Below, one piece after another: positions 5,289-31,719 of a stretch of 36,469 nucleotides of DNA (positions within the stretch are counted from its first letter, which is position 1; every line of letters starts with the position of its first letter). Where the stretch lies: the IMG/VR virus record IMGVR_UViG_2724679138_000003. One strand, written 5' to 3'. The DNA comes from a virus. Its lineage: Duplodnaviria > Heunggongvirae > Uroviricota > Caudoviricetes. Under the pieces are notes generated by a model that worked only from the letters and a program-made list of their open reading frames with translations, had not been told where the DNA came from and did no database searches. Both the position numbers and the translations under genes were made by a program.

Positions 5289-5987
5289 TTACTGCGAAAG
5301 TTTGTTAATGGAAAGGAAGCCGCCAAAGTTGCCGACATTATTGCGAAACTTACAGCCACTCAGGCATTTGCTGCATTTATCCTTCGTGATATCGGACGTC
5401 GGCTGGTCATATTCATCCGCGACCGCCGGACCGTTATAACCGCACTCATCACCGCGATAGGTCCAGGTGCAGGTATTAGCCAGCATGATGCGCCCCGGAA
5501 AAACGGCACCATCCGTTTCAGTCGGCGTGGACAGTACAAAGGAGGCACTGACCGCGCTCAATTCGCTGCACTGCTCGATGCGCCAGCGGCTAATCACCTC
5601 CTGCTCCGGATCGGCGTCGCTGTTTCCGTTGACGAAGTTCACCGCATCCAGAAAACGGGCGTAAACCTTACGCCGGACCACCGTTCCGCCGACCAGACTC
5701 TGCAGATCTTCCGCCATCCCGGTGACCATACCGTGCAGGTTAGAAACCGTCAGTGTCGGACGGGCAGCACTGCCCTTGCCGTTCAGTTCAAATCCTGTCC
5801 CCTGAATGGGGTATGCCTGATACTGCCGCCCCTGCCAGGTAACCGGCTCACCTTTTTCGTTCTGCTCATTACAGAAAAAATAACGTTCACCACCGACCTC
5901 TGTCAGATCGATTTCCCAGAGCACCACCTGGGCTGACTGAGTGAGGCGTGTCGTCTCATGATGTGTTTCCTGTGGAATATCCTGCAT
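5289..5987 (-). CDS. L: Minor tail protein L
   Basis: 232 aa, ...VVLWEIDLTEVGGERYFFCNEQNEKGEPVTWQGRQYQ... lambda L-like; C-terminal Cys cluster CSKCLSGCKF. Confidence 0.88.
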   Translation of the reverse strand: MQDIPQETHHETTRLTQSAQVVLWEIDLTEVGGERYFFCNEQNEKGEPVTWQGRQYQAYPIQGTGFELNGKGSAARPTLTVSNLHGMVTGMAEDLQSLVGGTVVRRKVYARFLDAVNFVNGNSDADPEQEVISRWRIEQCSELSAVSASFVLSTPTETDGAVFPGRIMLANTCTWTYRGDECGYNGPAVADEYDQPTSDITKDKCSKCLSGCKFRNNVGNFGGFLSINKLSQ

Positions 5988-5996
5988 CAGAGCCTC

Positions 5997-6326
5997 CTAT
6001 GCCACGACCTGTTCAAAATCTGCCGTTATGGTTACCCACAGCGCCCCCACGCTTGCCGACCATTTACGACAAACCACCCTGATCGGTTTCCAGTCATAAG
6101 GTGGCGTCCACTGAAATGCACGGACGCCACCGTGCCGTTCCAGAAAGGCTTTTAAAGATGGGTGTTCACATTTACGAACACGTATCGTCACGCTGTAAGT
6201 CGACAACTGGTTATTCAGTCCCGCCGCACGACGCTGTTCATAACCATCGCCCAGCTTCACTGTCACCACTTTCGGCTCTGATACCACATTCATATCCGGG
6301 CGCACTTTCCAGTGAAACGTCTCCAT
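5997..6326 (-). CDS. M: Minor tail protein M
   Basis: 109 aa lambda M-like (..KVRPDMNVVSEPKVVTVKLGDGYEQRRAAGLN..); start codon shares a base with the H stop. Confidence 0.85.
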   Translation of the reverse strand: METFHWKVRPDMNVVSEPKVVTVKLGDGYEQRRAAGLNNQLSTYSVTIRVRKCEHPSLKAFLERHGGVRAFQWTPPYDWKPIRVVCRKWSASVGALWVTITADFEQVVA

Positions 6327-9300
6327 TACCGATATGCTCCACTTAACCGACCACCATCACGGGCCTGCTGTTGCATAAAGTCCGCTGCCGCTTTTTTCCC
6401 GAGGTCATAAACCGCCTTCAGGGCAGCCGGACCTATCTGCCCGTTCGTGCCATCGTTATTGATCTCGATGTTGTACTGCGGGGAAAACATCGCCATACCT
6501 GAACCCCCAATATCCGCCACAACCCCCAGCTTACCGTCAGCACCACGACGCAATGGCAGAATGGCTTCAGGTCCCGCTTCCCCCATCACACCCGCGCCTT
6601 TTGCAAAAGCAAAAAACGTCGGACGGTTAACCACCGTGCCACTGTAACGACTCAAATCAGCAGACTGATAAATCCCCCCATTGGCATTCAGGGAAAGGCT
6701 GCTGAGATCAAATCCCAGTACACTGCCAATCCCTTTTATCGATTTCATCATGGTTGCCTGCGCCAGGATTTTCGCCATATCTGACAGCACAGAAGAGGTG
6801 AAGGATTTGAAATTGAGTTTGCCGGTAGTGACAAAAGTTGCCAGGCCATTTCCCATGTTGCTGAAGGCTGACGAGAACACCTGTTCTGCTGTTTCTGCCG
6901 TATTATCTGCATCCACGGTAAAATCCTGAAATGCACGCAGGACTCCGTTTTTCCAGTTACCCTGCACAACTTCAAGCTGTTGCCAGTAACGGCGATTCTC
7001 ATTCAGTTGTCGGTTCAGGCTCTCCGTCAGCGCCTGCTCGGCCTTTCTGTAGTCATCCGTGTTATATGTCCCTTTCTGCTCACTATCCCGCCTCAACTGC
7101 TCCAGCTGTTGCTGGTATTTCTGGCGAAGACTCAGTTGTACCTGATATCGCTGTCGCTGCTGATCACCCATACCCACCGTGGCGATATCCAGGTCATGTT
7201 GCTGACGCTGAGCGCGCTCTTCTTCAGCCAGTTGACTGGTCAGCTGAATTGTTTTTTTCTTCAGCTCGTTGAGTGCCGTCTGTTTCTGAAGCTCCTGCTG
7301 TTTTACATCCAGCAGCGTCAGTGCCTGAATCAGTTCATCTTTACGGGCCAGCACACTCTTTTCATCTGCCGTCAGTTTTTTCCCGTCCAGGTCGCTGATG
7401 CGCTGCTGCAGAGCCAGAAGCTGTTTATGCGCTTCTGTCATCCTTTCCGTGGCAATGCCTGCTGACTGTCTGGCAGCAGCAATCTGTCCTTCCACCTGTG
7501 CCTGTTGCTGACTGTACTGCAGCAATAACCGGGTGGCCTCATCATTACGGGTTTCGCGTGTTTTTTTCTTACCGGATGCCAGGGCTTTCTCGTAACGTTC
7601 ATTTTCACGTTGTATCGCCGCATCCCTGACAGCCTGATCGGCGTACTGCATGGCATTAATACGCGCAATTTCACGCTGATGTCGTGCAGCTTCCGTTTCA
7701 TTCATCCGGTTCAGTGCAGCATTTTCAGCATTACGGCGTTTCTGTTGCTCCTGATAATTCCGCTCTGCCTGCTCTTTTGCATCCTGCAAATCCTTCTGGC
7801 GTTTTTTCTCCTGAAGATCGTTAAGACGCTGCTGATCGTATTCAACCTGAGAAGATGATGCCGTCCAGGGGAGTCTTTTCGCCCGCGACACTTTCTCCTG
7901 TAAAGCGGCAATCTGTTCATCCAGCGAGTCTTCACGACCAATATTCATGGCCGCATCCCAGAAACGACTCCATAAATCAGACAGATACTTCAGCGTACTG
8001 CCCAGCGCATTGAGGTTATTATCAATATCCGCAGTACGCCGACCGGTTTCCTCTGCCAGTGCAGACATGGCTATCCGTGCAGCATCACTGGACCGCCCCT
8101 GATCCCCAAGGACGCGTATCTGCTCAAGCTGAGTGGCAGTAAGAAAATGCAGCTCATTGTCCAGAGCCTTCGCGGCATTTACAGGATCATCCTTCAGCCG
8201 CTTAAACTGATTTATGGTATCGCTGACCGACTGGCCAACCGATCGCTCCATCTGTGCGGCAGCTCTCGCCACCATACCGATATCGTTTCCACGAAATGCA
8301 CCACTCCCCACCACCTGAGCCAGCGCACCGGCTGCAGCATGTTGCGTAATACCATTCCCGGAAATAGCACGACTGAGCGTCCACAGCTGCCCGGCAGTGA
8401 CTCCGGCATAATGCCCCGTCAGCGACAACTGGCGGTTAAATTCTTCCCCCTCCTTCTGACCATCATACCAGGCTTTACCCAGACCATAGACGGCCGCGGC
8501 AATACCGCCAATAACCCCGCCCAGCATCATGCCTTTCGGTGACATCAGTGTGTCTATCCATCCGGCACGGTTAGCCAGCGTTATCCCGGATCCCCTCAGC
8601 GCACCTAAATTGCCGCGGGCCAGTTCACCTATCAGAACGCCTATCTCCTGGCGGGCCGCTGCACTTTTCAGACCCAGCGAATGCGTGGCTTTTCCTGCCT
8701 GCTCCATTTTGCGGATATACACTTCTGCAGCACTGCTTACCCCCAGCTGGGCAGCCTTAGCACGAAGCAACTCAGAAGAAGAAAGATTCTGGCGGGTTGC
8801 CTGCTCTTTAAGCTGACGGATAAACGCCACTTTCTGTCGGGTAGCCTCTTCCTCAGCCTGCGTAAGAACACGGGTTTTCGCCGTAACCTCAGAAATCAGC
8901 GCCAGATAATCCTGCTGACCAATCCCGCCACTGTTTCTGGCCTGTCGGATCTGCTGCTGAATACGCTGTAATTCCTGCAGCCCCGCACTGGCCTGTTTCA
9001 CACTGTCAATCTGACGATAAAACGCGGCAGCCGCTTTATCCTGAGCCTCCGCCAGAGCCATGGCCTGCGCCTGTTCCTCGCGCATTTTCTGGCTCAGTGC
9101 CTCCATACGCTGGCGGGTTTGCTCCACCTCGCGGGCCATGCGTTCATGAGCCTGTGCGCTCTTCTCCACCGTCTGCGCATGGACGGATGCGGCTGTTGCA
9201 GCCGAAGAAGCCGCCTGCATTGTCTGCCGGGCGGCCTGAGTCTGACGCTCCATAAAACGCTGCATACGGGCAGAAGACCGTTCTGCATCGCTGGCTGCAC

Positions 9301-24590: not shown

Positions 24591-24658
24591 AAGTGCGGGT
24601 GCGTTGAGGATGCCTGCCACATCAGAGGTGGCGAGGGATTTCTCCCTCGCCGGGTCTC

Positions 24659-24814
24659 TTACTCCTCAGGTTCGTAAGCTGTGAAGACAGCGACCTCCGT
24701 CTGGCCGGTTCGGATTCGTACCTCGCAAAGGTCTTTCCTCGTTACCAGTGCCGTCACTATGACGGTTAAACAGATGACGATCAGGGCGATTAACATCGCC
24801 TTTTGCTGCTTCAT
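24659..24814 (-). CDS. hokD: Hok/Gef-family type I toxin (HokD/RelF-like)
   Basis: 51 aa, MKQQKAMLIALIVICLTVIVTALVTRKDLCEVRIRTGQTEVAVFTAYEPEE: N-terminal TM helix and conserved Hok C-terminus; matches K-12 HokD as recalled. Confidence 0.85.
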   Translation of the reverse strand: MKQQKAMLIALIVICLTVIVTALVTRKDLCEVRIRTGQTEVAVFTAYEPEE

Positions 24815-25279
24815 AGCCTGCTTCTCCTTGCCTTTCGGCACGTAAGAGGCTAACCTACATGTGTCTAGCATGAAATTGGCCTCAGATTAATGTTAAGCGT
24901 CTTGCAGGACGCGTAATGTTAACTGGGGCTTTTCTCTATCTGCCGTTGGTGTTCATGCCCGAGGCAGATAGCCTCAAGCACCCGCAGTCATTCTACTTAA
25001 CTACCGTTACCTCGCCAATGTGAAATCAGTCAGAAAGGCGATCCATAAGAACAATAGCAAGACAATAAATCGCCATTACAGCCGTAATAGCCAGCGCACA
25101 TTTGAGAACCAGCACCACAACCTCCTGTATTGGACGTACACCAGTCCTGATGAATATGAGGCTGTCTCGTCAGTGATTCAATACAACTATTGGGTATAGT
25201 TTCTCTGATTTTTTCTGTGGAAATGGGGCTCAACCACTAGTCATTTAATACGCAAAGTCCGACACAAGCTAACCTTCTA

Positions 25280-25303
25280 GTCCGCTTTGAGCGAGGAGCG
25301 GAC
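25280..25303. repeat. 24-bp hairpin element, left boundary of AT-rich island
   Basis: GTCCGCTTTGAGCGAGGAGCGGAC: 7-bp stem GTCCGCT/AGCGGAC. A 22/24-identical inverted copy lies at 27769-27792. Confidence 0.6.
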
Positions 25304-25623
25304 CTTGTGTAAAAATCCCCATACCGGTTGATCGCGCTGAATGTTAGGTTCATAAACGACACAGGGTACATCGTAATGCTGCTCTATTGCTTCGTAAGTG
25401 ATTCCCAATCGCTGCATCACTCGCTGAGAAGGAGTTCGACAACAGCCACTAAATAGTTGTGCATAGAGAACGACTGGAAAAGGCCGTAGGAACTTACAAA
25501 TCTCAATTCACGGTAGAGTATGATATGGGTATTCAATATAAATACAGCCCTCAAAGGTTTAAATATGAACGGAAGTGTTAAAAACAATCTATCGTCAAAA
25601 AAGTACAAGCTAAAAGAAAAATT

Positions 25624-25911
25624 TTGAATTTGAATCGCGAGCTTTCTAATGGAAAGATCACTCAGGCTGATTATTGTCTATACAAAAAACTGTTTGAAGA
25701 CTACATTCAGGTATTAACATTTCAACACACAAGAATTTTTGTGGAAAAAGATTTAATAGAACTATCAAATCATCGAAGTGGAGTATTCATTACAACTCAG
25801 CATGATACATTAGTAAATAGACTTGACAAAATTGATTATGAAATTGACAGATTAAAAAACTGTTTAAATAAAAAAATTATCGATTACACAAAATTCACAT
25901 CCCTATATTAG
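25624..25911 (+). CDS. Questionable AT-rich ORF (95 codons, no in-frame ATG)
   Basis: Track ORF starts at TTG with no SD. A 20-codon ATG ORF with SD (25565-25627) sits upstream in another frame and ends in A-runs. May be a frameshifted gene or non-coding. Confidence 0.25.
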   Translation: MNLNRELSNGKITQADYCLYKKLFEDYIQVLTFQHTRIFVEKDLIELSNHRSGVFITTQHDTLVNRLDKIDYEIDRLKNCLNKKIIDYTKFTSLY

Positions 25912-26004
25912 GATTTTCTAAGAGTACGACACCGTCACATTTAAATATTATTTGTAGAGGTAAAATGACAGCCTGACGGCGGTATTTCATTGCGAAATGC
26001 TATT

Positions 26005-26027
26005 TAAAAGACCGCATTGAGCGGTCT
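26005..26027 (-). terminator. Hairpin terminator downstream of the island ORF pair
   Basis: Minus-strand AGACCGC-tcaat-GCGGTCT followed by TTTAAAT; about 40 nt past the TAG stop at 26064. Confidence 0.5.
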
Positions 26028-26063
26028 TATGTATCTCACAACATATTACAGAATGACTTTAAA

Positions 26064-26819
26064 CTATTGTTTTAATAACATTTCAAAATCCTCATTCCAG
26101 TGCGTGTTTTGTGAAATACGGGTATCAATTTCATCAAGCAGCATATCATGAGAAAGTATGCTTAAAGGGTCATTCCCATTTTTACCAAAACGCATCGTAG
26201 TTTCTGCTATTTCCCAATCTTCTGCGCTGATTGATGGCTGTATTGCATGGCAGTAGATAGCCTTCACATCCTTTTCATGACAGTCAAAATTATTGATGCT
26301 TTCTGCAATTTTACGAGCTCTTTCAATTTCGACAACTGGACCATGTAAAGTTTCATATGATATATGCACAATTGTAGGGGTATTATCTGGAACCTGTCGT
26401 ACCGCTTTGCTTAAGTGCGTTTTAATATCTTTTGCTTTTTTATTAATCGATTCCTCTGCTATACATTCCCAACGAGCACAGTAACCAGAGTGTATTCCAG
26501 TGCAAAAAATGTTAAGTATATCAACACCGTCGTCCGGACCTACTCGTACAAGTCCTTTTGGGGCACAAAGATGAGTGTAATTTTCGCTGCTGCTAAAACT
26601 TCCGGCCAACAACGAAACCATCTGTGGAGAGTTCCATTTAACCATGTATTTATCAAAATGCTCATTGATATTTTTCATATCTATTCTATTAATCAGTATT
26701 ATAATTTCATCATTTTCTATTCTCAGTGACTTTCTCGTCGAGATATTAGACTTTATTTCATTGAAGATTTTTGCTAAAATATATTCATCTGTATCTTTTA
26801 CTTCAACCTTGAAAAGCAC
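26064..26819 (-). CDS. Island ORF B (251 codons), unknown function; possibly the C-terminal part of a gene split by a TAA
   Basis: Same frame as ORF A with only one TAA (26886-26888) and 22 sense codons between them; no ATG or SD of its own (track start is GTG 26819); AT-rich codon usage. Confidence 0.5.
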   Translation of the reverse strand: MLFKVEVKDTDEYILAKIFNEIKSNISTRKSLRIENDEIIILINRIDMKNINEHFDKYMVKWNSPQMVSLLAGSFSSSENYTHLCAPKGLVRVGPDDGVDILNIFCTGIHSGYCARWECIAEESINKKAKDIKTHLSKAVRQVPDNTPTIVHISYETLHGPVVEIERARKIAESINNFDCHEKDVKAIYCHAIQPSISAEDWEIAETTMRFGKNGNDPLSILSHDMLLDEIDTRISQNTHWNEDFEMLLKQ

Positions 26820-26885
26820 GTCTAAAAATATGTTTTGTCTAGACTGAGTTAGAATAGGTACTAAATTGAGCCATCTTTGCCTCCA

Positions 26886-27518
26886 TTATCGACGCTCATT
26901 TTCAGAATATTCAGTCACTTTAGATAAACGCTTACATTCCACAAAAAAGCTTTCTTCACCTTTAGTAACTTTTAAATCAGGAGTTTTATTTAATGCTGTT
27001 TCTGGAATAAATTCTACTCTATAACCATTGCGCGCATACATAATCGCAACAACTAATTCAAACAATGTTGAATCAGGTTGATTTATTTTACCGTTAAGAA
27101 ATTCCGAAAGTTTTTCATCAATCCCAACAATTTTTTTTGCAAGCTCAATATGTCTTCCAACAGCCGCAAAAAAGGGAAATACTCGGGCTGATTGCGCTAA
27201 CTCGCTAACTAAAGGCCGTTCATGTAAGCATTCTACAAGAAAAAGATACCATGCAACCCAATCCTCATGAAATGCCACCCTATTTTTTGGCTCTTCCATA
27301 CTCTTCATTGCTTGGTCAAAATTCTTATAGGTGTTATCTTCCTGTTCTCTGAAGTACTTGACTACATTTTTTTTGCGAGTCTCCCAAGTATCCTTTTCCA
27401 GATAAGATAAAAACCAGTCCAATGCAATTTTCGTATGATGATGCCAGGGACTGGTATCCGTTGCTGCAAAAATCTCTTGTAGTTCTTTTGAATATTCCAA
27501 TGTCTGTGTGTTAGCCAT
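26886..27518 (-). CDS. Island ORF A (210 aa), unknown function with C-terminal PD-(D/E)xK-like motif
   Basis: ATG 27518 with GAGG 6 nt upstream; C-terminal ...LFELVVAIMYARNGYRVEFIPETALNKTPDLKVTKGEESFFVECKRL has helix-E, PD, and hydrophobic-ExK spacing typical of the restriction-endonuclease fold. Confidence 0.6.
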   Translation of the reverse strand: MANTQTLEYSKELQEIFAATDTSPWHHHTKIALDWFLSYLEKDTWETRKKNVVKYFREQEDNTYKNFDQAMKSMEEPKNRVAFHEDWVAWYLFLVECLHERPLVSELAQSARVFPFFAAVGRHIELAKKIVGIDEKLSEFLNGKINQPDSTLFELVVAIMYARNGYRVEFIPETALNKTPDLKVTKGEESFFVECKRLSKVTEYSENERR

Positions 27519-27768
27519 TTTGACCTCATCATTGTTAATTTATGAGATTTTACAACTTATAATGCATCTTCCAGATCGAGCCTCCAAGTAAGAAATCAGG
27601 CTAAATCAGACAGATATGTAATATATCCCTAGTCAATTAGGCAGTCCACCCATAAATCCTAACAGTACGAAAATGGTTGGAACGTTATCCTAGGTTACTG
27701 CTCATCGTTTCCTTATGACCTCAATATATAAATATCCCAGCTCTTGCGGTTCGATTGTATGATTGACA

Positions 27769-27792
27769 GTCCGCTCCTGGCACAAAGCGGAC
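27769..27792. repeat. 24-bp hairpin element, right boundary of AT-rich island (inverted copy)
   Basis: GTCCGCTCCTGGCACAAAGCGGAC; its reverse complement GTCCGCTTTGTGCCAGGAGCGGAC matches 25280-25303 at 22 of 24 positions. Confidence 0.6.
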
Positions 27793-27889
27793 AACCACGC
27801 CAGATCTACCCTGTGCCATGAAAAATGAGAATGTCAATTCACTCCTGAACTAATGCTTTTTAATCTAGTAACGTCTAAAATACCTAACA

Positions 27890-28291
27890 TTATCCCTGAT
27901 AAAATGCCAGTATGCGCTGCATAACTTCACTCATCCGGCACTCGCGACAGATTATGTTTAGGCGACTGTCGTAGCGACGTATTTCTCCATCAGGTAACGA
28001 CCAGATAAGGTCCGGATCAACCACAGCTGTTTTCTTCACCTTTGCCCTCGATAGTTTTTTGCGGGCGTTTTGCCAGTCCTTACGCGCCTGTTCAGACGGG
28101 AATAACCCGTAGCCGGAGTTGTATACATCGCCACTGGCTACCAGCTCTCTGGCAAGAACGCTCATCAGATATCTAGTCGCACCTGTTTTAGCTTCCAGTT
28201 GCCGTAACGTCTCACGACCACTCTGGCGCACGAGTTCCACCACCTGCCCTTTAATTTTTTCCCGCTCTTCTTGTGTAAAAACTTTTGCCAC
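27890..28291 (-). CDS. Hypothetical protein downstream of replication initiator (133 aa)
   Basis: GTG start at 28291 with GGGGG upstream; occupies the slot where lambda P (helicase loader) would sit but is far too small to be P or DnaC. Confidence 0.45.
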   Translation of the reverse strand: MAKVFTQEEREKIKGQVVELVRQSGRETLRQLEAKTGATRYLMSVLARELVASGDVYNSGYGLFPSEQARKDWQNARKKLSRAKVKKTAVVDPDLIWSLPDGEIRRYDSRLNIICRECRMSEVMQRILAFYQG

Positions 28292-28331
28292 AAGTCCCCC
28301 TTAAAATTACCTCATGACCTGAAATCAAAAC

Positions 28332-29297
28332 TTATCCTCTGAAACCAGGCGGAATTTCTGTATCCGGTTCAGAAATATGATTCACACAACGCTGTACAGG
28401 TGAACGTCCCAGGCGGATGACCAGTTCGTCCCATTTTTCGCGGAGTTTTGACGGGCTCATGATGTTTTTTACCCAGAATGGATCCCGCTGTACCCGACCA
28501 AACATTTCGCAAATTTGTCTGTGGCTTCTGCCATCCAGCATCCGCATTGTGCGCACGTCATTGGCCCAGGCTGTCCAGTTAGGCTCTTTTGGTCGCATGA
28601 TCTCTCCATCGTCGCTGGCAGCCTGTTCGTAAAGGTTCACGATCCGCCCCCAAATCCACTGCGCACACGCCAAATCCTCCCTGCTACCCCACTGGCGTTT
28701 TTTCACACTAAACACAACCGCGTCGGGGTTCCGAGTTAAAAAATCCTGTTCAGTCGTCTGCGGGTCCGGTTGCGAAGCTTCCGGACGAAAAGTGTTTTTA
28801 TTCTCTGTAGTAATCTCTGTTGTATTCTCTGTAAGATCATCAGGCCATTTTGACCCGATGACATTGGGTCGTTTTGAACCAATGGAGCGTTTCATTTTGA
28901 CCTCTTCCATCGTGTCATTTTGACCTGATGGAGCGGCGCATTTTGAACCGATGGATTCGTTCAATTTGCCACCATCTAAAAGCTCGCTCCCATAGTTGAT
29001 CGTGTAGAAATTGGTCATATCGCGCTTTGATTTATTGAGCTTTTCACAACGCAAAAGCCCCAGCGTTTTCAGACTTGCAAACGCGCGCTTTAACGTTGAC
29101 TCTGACCAGAATGGGAACTGTTCCAGCCATTGTTCCGTTGTGTTGTAAATCCAGCGAACACCATCACATTCCATGCCGGAATTGGTATCTCTCAACCAGT
29201 AATGCAACTGCTGCAACACAATGGCTTCATTTAAGCCAATCTTCATCGCAAGCTGTGTGTTTATAACCAGTGGGCGTTCAGCAAAAAGAAGGCTCAT
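28332..29297 (-). CDS. Replication initiator protein (lambda O-like) with internal origin iterons
   Basis: N-terminal helix-turn-helix-like region; six ~23-bp direct repeats inside the coding sequence, as in ori-lambda within gene O. Start is uncertain (ATG 29297 or TTG 29351). Confidence 0.7.
   Translation of the reverse strand: MSLLFAERPLVINTQLAMKIGLNEAIVLQQLHYWLRDTNSGMECDGVRWIYNTTEQWLEQFPFWSESTLKRAFASLKTLGLLRCEKLNKSKRDMTNFYTINYGSELLDGGKLNESIGSKCAAPSGQNDTMEEVKMKRSIGSKRPNVIGSKWPDDLTENTTEITTENKNTFRPEASQPDPQTTEQDFLTRNPDAVVFSVKKRQWGSREDLACAQWIWGRIVNLYEQAASDDGEIMRPKEPNWTAWANDVRTMRMLDGRSHRQICEMFGRVQRDPFWVKNIMSPSKLREKWDELVIRLGRSPVQRCVNHISEPDTEIPPGFRG
28846..28984. repeat. Origin of replication iterons: six tandem ~23-bp repeats (consensus CATTTTGACC-N-GATGGAGCG)
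   Basis: Repeat cores at 28846, 28870, 28893, 28916, 28939 and 28962 (CATTTTGACC / CGTTTTGAACC / CAATTTGCC), adjoined by TTCTCTGT repeats at 28801-28835. Confidence 0.65.
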
Positions 29298-31661: not shown

Positions 31662-31719
31662 TTTCTGGTGACGTTTGGCGGTATCAGTTTTACTCCGTGA
31701 CTGCTCTGCCGCCGTTTTT
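31662..31719 (+). ncRNA. dicF: DicF small regulatory RNA
   Basis: TTTCTGGTGACGTTTGGCGGTATCAGTTTTACTCCGTGACTGCTCTGCCGCCG followed by TTTTT; matches the K-12 DicF sequence as recalled (one mismatch at the 3' end); sits between ydfC-position gene and dicB. Confidence 0.8.

Follow-up and report, generated by a model that had tools for sequence, protein, structure and literature searches.

The window, that is, the whole 36,469-nucleotide stretch of DNA analysed here, corresponds to part of an Escherichia coli draft assembly (GCA_001596855.1, contig LRAB01000031.1; window coordinate + 30 = record coordinate) and carries a Qin-like lambdoid prophage. The order of the prophage genes is dicB, ydfD, cI/cro-like genes, ydaT, replication genes, a DUF977 gene, the gene considered here, hokD/sok, rem, and ydfU. 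The gene in question lies on the minus strand, encodes a predicted nuclease, and is interrupted in this copy by an in-frame TAA codon. Its features are the following.

26064..27518, minus strand: entire gene, with 484 sense codons before the stop in intact alleles (WP_032341362.1), interrupted at codon 211 in the window copy
26889..27518, minus strand: ORF A, the N-terminal fragment, starting with ATG at 27518, 210 codons (NCBI WP_251987426.1)
26931..27059, minus strand: predicted PD-(D/E)xK motif codons, with E154 at 27059-27057, P180-D181 at 26981-26976, and E194-C-K196 at 26939-26931
26886..26888, minus strand: premature stop TAA, codon 211, in the context CGA-TAA-T
26839..26886, minus strand: off-frame mini-ORF of 15 codons, MEAKMAQFSTYSNSV followed by a stop, beginning at a TAATG overlap with the new stop
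26820..26885, minus strand: 22 in-frame sense codons from the stop to the GTG, equal to residues 212-233 of intact alleles and ordinary coding sequence
26064..26819, minus strand: ORF B, the C-terminal fragment, starting with GTG at codon 234, 251 aa (NCBI WP_251987425.1), with its stop at 26066-26064

A preliminary description of this DNA placed ORF A and ORF B in one reading frame, separated by a single TAA, and the arithmetic agrees: (27518-26819) mod 3 = 0 on the minus strand, the 22 sense codons between the TAA and the GTG (26885-26820) translate as WRQRWLNLVPILTQSRQNIFLD, and the translation of the whole gene contains one internal stop only. ORF A encodes a predicted all-helical N-terminal domain and the beginning of the putative nuclease core, including the four motif residues, and is preceded by a Shine-Dalgarno sequence (GAGG, 5 nt before the ATG, at 27527-27524). 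For ORF B, as had been stated, no Shine-Dalgarno sequence is present in the 26 nt 5′ of the GTG (AGTCTAGACAAAACATATTTTTAGAC), and the next in-frame ATG occurs only at codon 281. The GGAGG...ATG noticed in the gap was likewise recovered; its ATG (26874-26872) is off-frame, opens 11 codons, and proves to be the fifth codon of the 15-codon mini-ORF, which itself starts at the ATG (26886-26884) of a TAATG stop/start overlap created by the mutation. The bases of the mini-ORF are identical in the intact allele of E. coli EC93 except for the G-to-T change described below; the mini-ORF arises from the way W-R-Q-R-W is encoded, and intact alleles have it as well.

At the composition of the gene, stop codons are expected at a frequency of 0.078 per codon. 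The 22 open codons in the same frame would thus arise by chance with p ~0.056, which is unremarkable alone, and at most one stop across 484 codons with p ~4e-16. Because of the latter value, and because the other two frames contain 30 and 59 stops, the long frame is taken to be genuine coding sequence.

To find close relatives, 5,426 complete E. coli genomes were searched with the locus by megablast. The locus was found in 11 of these, always with at least 99.5% identity, and in 10 of the 11 it is annotated as a single 1455-nt CDS encoding 484 aa (WP_032341362.1, WP_077737570.1, or WP_115203268.1). Codon 211 is GAA in EC93, L725, and eight more complete genomes. Between the EC93 allele and the window gene there is a single difference, G631T, by which GAA (Glu211) becomes TAA; the mutated base is window position 26888, a T on the minus strand where intact alleles have G. 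A 1,701-bp query (25950-27650) showed no difference from EC93 beyond G631T, and ~10 kb of the surrounding prophage showed 36 mismatches. As the gene carries no other change, the mutation must be very recent.

More distant homologues show the same single-gene organization. A word-indexed search gave 87 homologue clusters from Enterobacterales, Vibrionales, Alteromonadales, Aeromonas, and Bacteroidota, all of them single proteins, nearly all of 450-520 aa, with query coverage of 93-100%. An exhaustive profile search gave 1,008 representatives at 50% identity, 235 of them at E <= 1e-30. Among the best 150 profile matches, 139 span the break point in one matched stretch, and no conserved split homologue was found; four matches end or start near the break: one is a fragment at a contig edge, two are calls that are truncated or fragmentary, and the fourth has an internal deletion. 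The protein matches phrog_37220 over its full length (E 2e-51), with residues 29-477 aligned to positions 12-454 of the 461-position profile, and among deposited phage genomes the sole relative is a single ORF of 461 aa in a P2-like phage. The family alignment places the stop within a strongly conserved stretch, K200...E208-R-x-E-W212, in which E208 and W212 are invariant; the column of codon 211 contains E, Q, A, N, D, H, G, or L and in no case a stop. The column of the ORF B GTG (V234) is variable (V/I/T/N) in the homologues.

An AlphaFold2 (AF2) model built on the family alignment (mean pLDDT 88, pTM 0.88) predicts an alpha-beta-beta-beta-alpha-beta core consisting of a helix (148-163), three strands (167-170, 182-186, and 189-197), a second helix (203-226), and a fourth strand (230-236). 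Codon 211 is placed inside the second helix and codon 234 inside the fourth strand, with residues 212-233 covering part of both. Since both codons sit in elements of the nuclease core, the break is predicted to fall within a fold and not at a domain boundary.

Thus, the proposal that ORF A and ORF B are one ~484-codon gene with a nonsense codon is borne out by 10 of the 11 E. coli genomes with the locus, by the single-base difference from EC93, and by the single-protein homologues; the comparison with homologous loci that had been suggested as a check gave a single ORF, and a two-gene pattern with an intact ORF B start was not found. Among the causes that had been offered for the stop, recent inactivation fits best. 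Very probably, the locus is one 484-aa nuclease-family gene, carried as prophage cargo and cut by a single G-to-T nonsense change, that is, a recent pseudogene. In this scheme, a single G-to-T transversion would have converted codon 211 from GAA (Glu) into TAA, and translation would stop there to yield a 210-aa fragment. The fragment would retain E154, D181, E194, and K196 and would be without most of the second helix of the predicted core, its fourth strand, and the whole C-terminal half. Given these losses, the allele is most likely null, and the fragment is probably unstable. ORF B would be the leftover frame from the first NTG codon on rather than an evolved gene, and would hardly be expressed at any useful level.

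Other interrupted alleles of the gene exist. A second nonsense allele, W216* (G648A, TGG to TGA), lies on another haplotype (687T, 753T) and was found in two unrelated sequencing runs (SRR24724649 and SRR20591087), and a −1 frameshift in an A8 run is present in the O166:H15 strain JNE21-003 and related assemblies. W216* was identified by look-up of the exact sequence of ORF B, a procedure that detects only stops in codons 202-233; of the 228 routes that lead to a stop in a single step, 20 fall there. Since the look-up is limited to these codons, the nearness of W216* to the window allele (E211*) reflects ascertainment, and selection for a split near codon 211/216 was rejected as an explanation for it. 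The repeated null alleles could mean either that a dispensable cargo gene is lost neutrally or that selection acts against a costly nuclease. In addition, an IS2 element was observed upstream of one intact copy in E. coli.

The chief rival to a recent pseudogene is a sequencing or assembly error, in which case the true codon 211 would be GAA, the gene would be intact, and the TAA would exist only in the draft contig. The exact 210-aa product is known from a single contig, which comes from NCBI alone and has no counterpart in an independent Logan assembly; E211* was found in 0 of the 5,426 complete E. coli genomes, and it differs from the common intact allele by that base alone. However, single-base substitutions are uncommon in a consensus assembly, the site is not a homopolymer, and real null alleles of the gene are documented elsewhere (W216* in two runs, the frameshift in several assemblies), so that an error is considered unlikely. 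The one-gene conclusion holds whether the TAA is real or a base-call error.

Functional recoding or a split protein, in which readthrough, suppression, or reinitiation (for example, first at the TAATG overlap and mini-ORF and later at the GTG) keeps the locus working, is very improbable. The frame 3′ of the TAA is still fully open and undamaged, a TAATG stop/start overlap arises from the mutation, and two independent nonsense alleles lie only five codons apart (211 and 216); the open downstream frame, however, is explained by the recency of the mutation. Moreover, the stop is not conserved, the codon being a sense codon in 10 of the 11 E. coli genomes and in all other clusters. The stop is followed by T, and TAA followed by T is reportedly a strong termination context in E. 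coli. No tRNA gene was detected in the window by ARAGORN, and no Rfam match was found downstream of the stop, leaving nothing in favour of the readthrough that the preliminary description had listed among its options. Against reinitiation, the TAATG start is off-frame and its ORF terminates after 15 codons, the ORF B GTG has no Shine-Dalgarno sequence, the break is predicted to lie inside the core fold and not in a linker, and no stably split homologues were found in the profile search. Least probable of all, and refuted by the homologue comparison, is the translationally coupled two-gene operon (a nuclease subunit A with a partner B) that had also been entertained: although the NCBI pipeline annotates two proteins here (WP_251987426.1 and WP_251987425.1) and ORF A and ORF B are close together on the same strand, in different phyla the homologues consist of one protein, the 22 codons labelled 'intergenic' belong to conserved coding sequence, with the invariant W212 among them, the start codon of ORF B varies in the alignment and is not preceded by a Shine-Dalgarno sequence, and the A/B junction would cut the modelled alpha-beta-beta-beta-alpha-beta nuclease core.

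The locus therefore shows nothing out of the ordinary: the gene became a pseudogene very recently or, in the worst case, is intact and was miscalled at one base. For the question posed, the result is chiefly a clean negative, with neither recoding nor a new operon architecture and with one-base pseudogenisation in their place. WP_251987426.1 and WP_251987425.1 are two pieces of WP_032341362.1, and annotation as a single pseudogene would be appropriate. The pattern is the same as that of nonsense pseudogenes in prophage moron genes: the orthologue has a sense codon, one substitution separates the two, no further decay is seen, and the cargo is non-essential. Compared with typical moron pseudogenes, the case is notable only for its several independent E. 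coli null alleles (E211*, W216*, and the A8 frameshift).

The intact 484-aa protein belongs to an uncharacterised, stand-alone family (phrog_37220). In a first family alignment, E154, P180-D181, and E194-C-K196-R197 were invariant; at 20-41% identity, the sole invariant residues are G121, E154, D181, E194, K196, Q375, and H385. Both halves of the protein carry invariant residues, with Q375 and H385 lying in the C-terminal half. The AF2 core, preceded by an N-terminal helical domain of ~145 residues and followed by a conserved C-terminal alpha/beta region of ~250 residues (conserved residues K361, Q375, H385, E389, E397, R400, K403, H424, E439, and H473-W474), is predicted to resemble solved PD-(D/E)xK members in its alpha-beta-beta-beta-alpha-beta fold. 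The list obtained for the nuclease core, with the value for each entry, is as follows.

AF1548: 8.5
NucC: 7.3
HamA: 7.1
Can2: 7.0
CdiA-CT toxins: 6.6-7.0
Hjc: 5.7-6.4
Type II restriction enzymes: ~6

At the sequence level, the Pfam match to Mrr_cat (PF04471; residues 151-200) remains below threshold (13.2 vs 21 bits, E 0.1), with weak Mrr_cat matches in 14 of 38 relatives and weak Hjc matches in 4 of 38. NCBIfam gave no match for the protein, PADLOC-DB 2.0 gave chance-level matches only (GajB at E 0.0024 over a non-homologous stretch, AbiEi at E 0.02), a PDB sequence search with the family profile gave chance matches only (E 0.6-1.6), and Foldseek with the whole chain against PDB and BFVD gave nothing at E <= 0.001. 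No literature was found on WP_032341362 or phrog_37220, and a search of the literature on defence hotspots of lambdoid prophages and hokD turned up nothing concerning the family. The protein is therefore predicted, from its motif residues and modelled fold, to be a PD-(D/E)xK nuclease at the superfamily level, outside any curated family. PD-(D/E)xK nucleases with Mrr/Hjc-type cores are found in several defence effectors, among them HamA (Hachiman), NucC (CBASS), and Can2 (type III CRISPR). The present protein differs from these in falling below the Mrr_cat threshold, in having flanking domains without a significant sequence or structure relative, and in being encoded by a stand-alone gene with no recognisable partner helicase, cyclase, or CARF/SAVED-type sensor.

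The gene occupies, alone, a low-GC cassette (GC 0.30-0.39 vs ~0.5 in the flanks) in the slot between the DUF977 gene and hokD. The features of the cassette and its surroundings are given below.

25303..27768, no strand assigned: 2.5-kb low-GC cassette, delimited by composition and by flank alignments to three loci with other cargo
26002..26028, minus strand: terminator-like hairpin directly 3′ of the gene's stop, with an 8-bp GC-rich stem (AAGACCGC/GCGGUCUU), a 5-nt loop, and the tail UUAAAU
25624-25911, plus strand: convergent 95-aa ORF, without a PHROG match
24809-24983, minus strand: sok (Rfam)
31663-31714, plus strand: DicF (Rfam)

The flank alignments end at 27769/27765 on one side and at 25302/25294 (25062 in locus L027) on the other. 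The hairpin has a folding energy of −16.7 kcal/mol (z = −3.4 vs shuffles); a scan for consensus terminators after the gene found nothing, the hairpin having been missed because its T-run is short. The sok and DicF entries are the only Rfam matches in the window. Flanks of the cassette are present in 4,331 of the 5,426 complete E. coli genomes (~80%), and the gene is present in 11. In each of the three aligned loci, another single gene occupies the slot: one for a RelA/SpoT-domain protein matching the PADLOC candidate PDC-S33 (5e-119), one for a DUF4209 protein matching the PADLOC candidate PDC-S39 (3e-102), and one for an Sll1717-family P-loop ATPase with no PADLOC match. Further occupants of the slot include QueH and a methyltransferase together with a DUF7167 protein. 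In the Qin prophage of E. coli K-12, the genes directly upstream of hokD are relBE. The resemblance lies in the same position upstream of hokD and in accessory cargo with a stress or defence flavour; relBE is, however, a type II toxin-antitoxin pair, whereas the cargo here is a single predicted nuclease unrelated to it in sequence and mechanism. The DUF977-to-hokD interval appears as a cassette-exchange hotspot in Qin/Rac-like prophages that could be mined for more defence genes.

The neighbourhoods of homologues provide qualitative evidence on function, drawn from six neighbourhoods and one phage. In an Enterovibrio prophage, the homologue is found beside an AriA/GajA-like OLD ATPase (1.7e-28) and a PD-T7-4-like DUF4145 protein; in Olivibacter it is beside PDC-M49A (3e-303), and a further homologue is directly upstream of Hachiman HamA/HamB. 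Other homologues lie between host DNA and the integrase in a Cronobacter P2-like prophage, in an integrase mini-island in Aeromonas, and adjoining a prophage integrase in Vibrio fluvialis. In the P2-like phage 899, the relative lies between the tail-fibre-assembly and tail-sheath genes, a position that presumably corresponds to the variable Z/fun locus on the P2 map. A conserved partner or antitoxin gene was considered and rejected, because the neighbours differ in every lineage examined and the homologues always stand alone.

Hotspots in temperate phages are well known to harbour defence genes (Rousset et al., 2022, PMC9122126). Like the single-gene systems in the P2 old/tin and P4 hotspots (PMC9122126) and the PADLOC PDC candidates, the window gene is the cargo of a low-GC single-gene cassette, its homologues have known or candidate defence genes as neighbours, and alternative occupants of its slot match PDC-S33 and PDC-S39. 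It differs in that the family is absent from PADLOC-DB 2.0, has no phenotype in the literature searched, and occupies a slot in a lambdoid Qin-like prophage (DUF977 gene to hokD) rather than in a P2 or P4 hotspot; two papers on P2/P4 hotspots, PMC9122126 among them, do not name the family. Motif, fold, and genomic context together suggest that the intact protein may be a prophage-borne stand-alone anti-phage nuclease whose non-catalytic domains would sense infection and then license nucleic-acid cleavage, a proposal to which we give roughly even weight. The defence role is an argument from guilt by association, as PADLOC-DB 2.0, NCBIfam, Pfam, and Foldseek give no significant relative. As a widespread, uncharacterised nuclease family with a confidently predicted structure and no solved relative, it is nevertheless a reasonable candidate for a single-gene defence system.

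A more ambitious reading, held only tentatively and judged somewhat doubtful, is that the family constitutes an undescribed stand-alone defence family in which a PD-(D/E)xK nuclease is controlled by a novel-fold C-terminal domain, and that the null alleles in E. coli reflect cost or autoimmunity. The family numbers ~1,000 representatives (50% identity) and extends over Proteobacteria, Bacteroidota, and phages of the P2-like and lambdoid types. If this were true, E211*, W216*, the A8 frameshift, and the IS2 upstream of an intact copy would be signs of fitness cost or autoimmunity and not of neutral decay. For experiments on function, the natural E211* and W216* alleles offer ready-made isogenic null controls. 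Shortened forms of the protein are also found: a 414-aa form starting at M71 is present on nine E. coli contigs, and a 204-aa form starts at M281.

The prophage is Qin-like, because it carries both sok/hokD and DicF, and the stretch between the DUF977 gene and hokD (window 25303-27768), in which the predicted nuclease gene lies, is a hotspot of cassette exchange.

Marker genes, slot and downstream ORF in the window
24659-24871, minus strand: hokD toxin ORF, accompanying sok
24809-24983, minus strand: sok antitoxin RNA, complete (115 bits)
25303-27768: slot (cassette), with flanks at 27769-28700 and 24600-25302
25624-25911, plus strand: convergent ORF of 95 aa with a TTG start, inside 25303-26063
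31663-31714, plus strand: DicF sRNA (72.5 bits)

Among 5,426 complete E. coli genomes, 4,331 have the slot flanks, and the cargo between these varies and is single-gene.

Slot cargo in other E. coli
RelA/SpoT-domain protein (PADLOC candidate defence model PDC-S33)
DUF4209 protein (PADLOC candidate defence model PDC-S39)
Sll1717 P-loop ATPase
QueH
Methyltransferase and DUF7167
Alpha/beta hydrolase, DUF1627 and ATPase (in O157)

In the window, the approximately 760 bp of low-GC cassette lying 3′ of the nuclease gene (25303-26063) is without an annotated feature in any record, and comparison of the convergent 95-aa ORF with PHROG gave no match.

Further null alleles of the nuclease gene arose independently. 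W216* (TGG to TGA at ORF nt 648) was found in two loci from unrelated sequencing runs (SRR24724649 and SRR20591087), carried by a haplotype differing from that of the window, and a frameshift allele—that is, a −1 change in an A8 run at ORF nt ~380-388—was found in JNE21-003, of the O166:H15 lineage. Shortened forms of the nuclease also exist, one from M71 (9 contigs) and another from M281. In the window allele itself, the G-to-T change was seen to create a TAATG stop/start overlap at 26884-26888 (minus strand), opening an off-frame mini-ORF of 15 codons that ends 20 nt before the GTG of ORF B, the C-terminal fragment; a termination-reinitiation relay from this mini-ORF to that GTG is conceivable but unsupported.

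A relative of the nuclease (28.6% identical) is encoded by the P2-like Escherichia phage 899 (PV533660.1; 4968-7679), itself near-identical to Yersinia phage GMG73. The same locus contains a second gene of unknown function (348 aa, phrog_12991), both genes being placed between the tail-fibre-assembly and tail-sheath genes, and is likely to be an accessory or defence locus. Another homologue, P0038, was found directly upstream of a Hachiman HamA/HamB pair with an adjoining transposase (L021, 6001-11204), and this region is a compact defence island.

In other strains, the nuclease gene is flanked by insertion sequences. In E. coli strain 201609, an intact copy has an IS2 ~170 bp upstream (L008, 571-1799), which may have separated the gene from its promoter or replaced that promoter, and an IS3-family element occupies 5532-6745 of the JNE21-003 locus (L002), within the ~1.2-kb interval between the nuclease gene and hokD.
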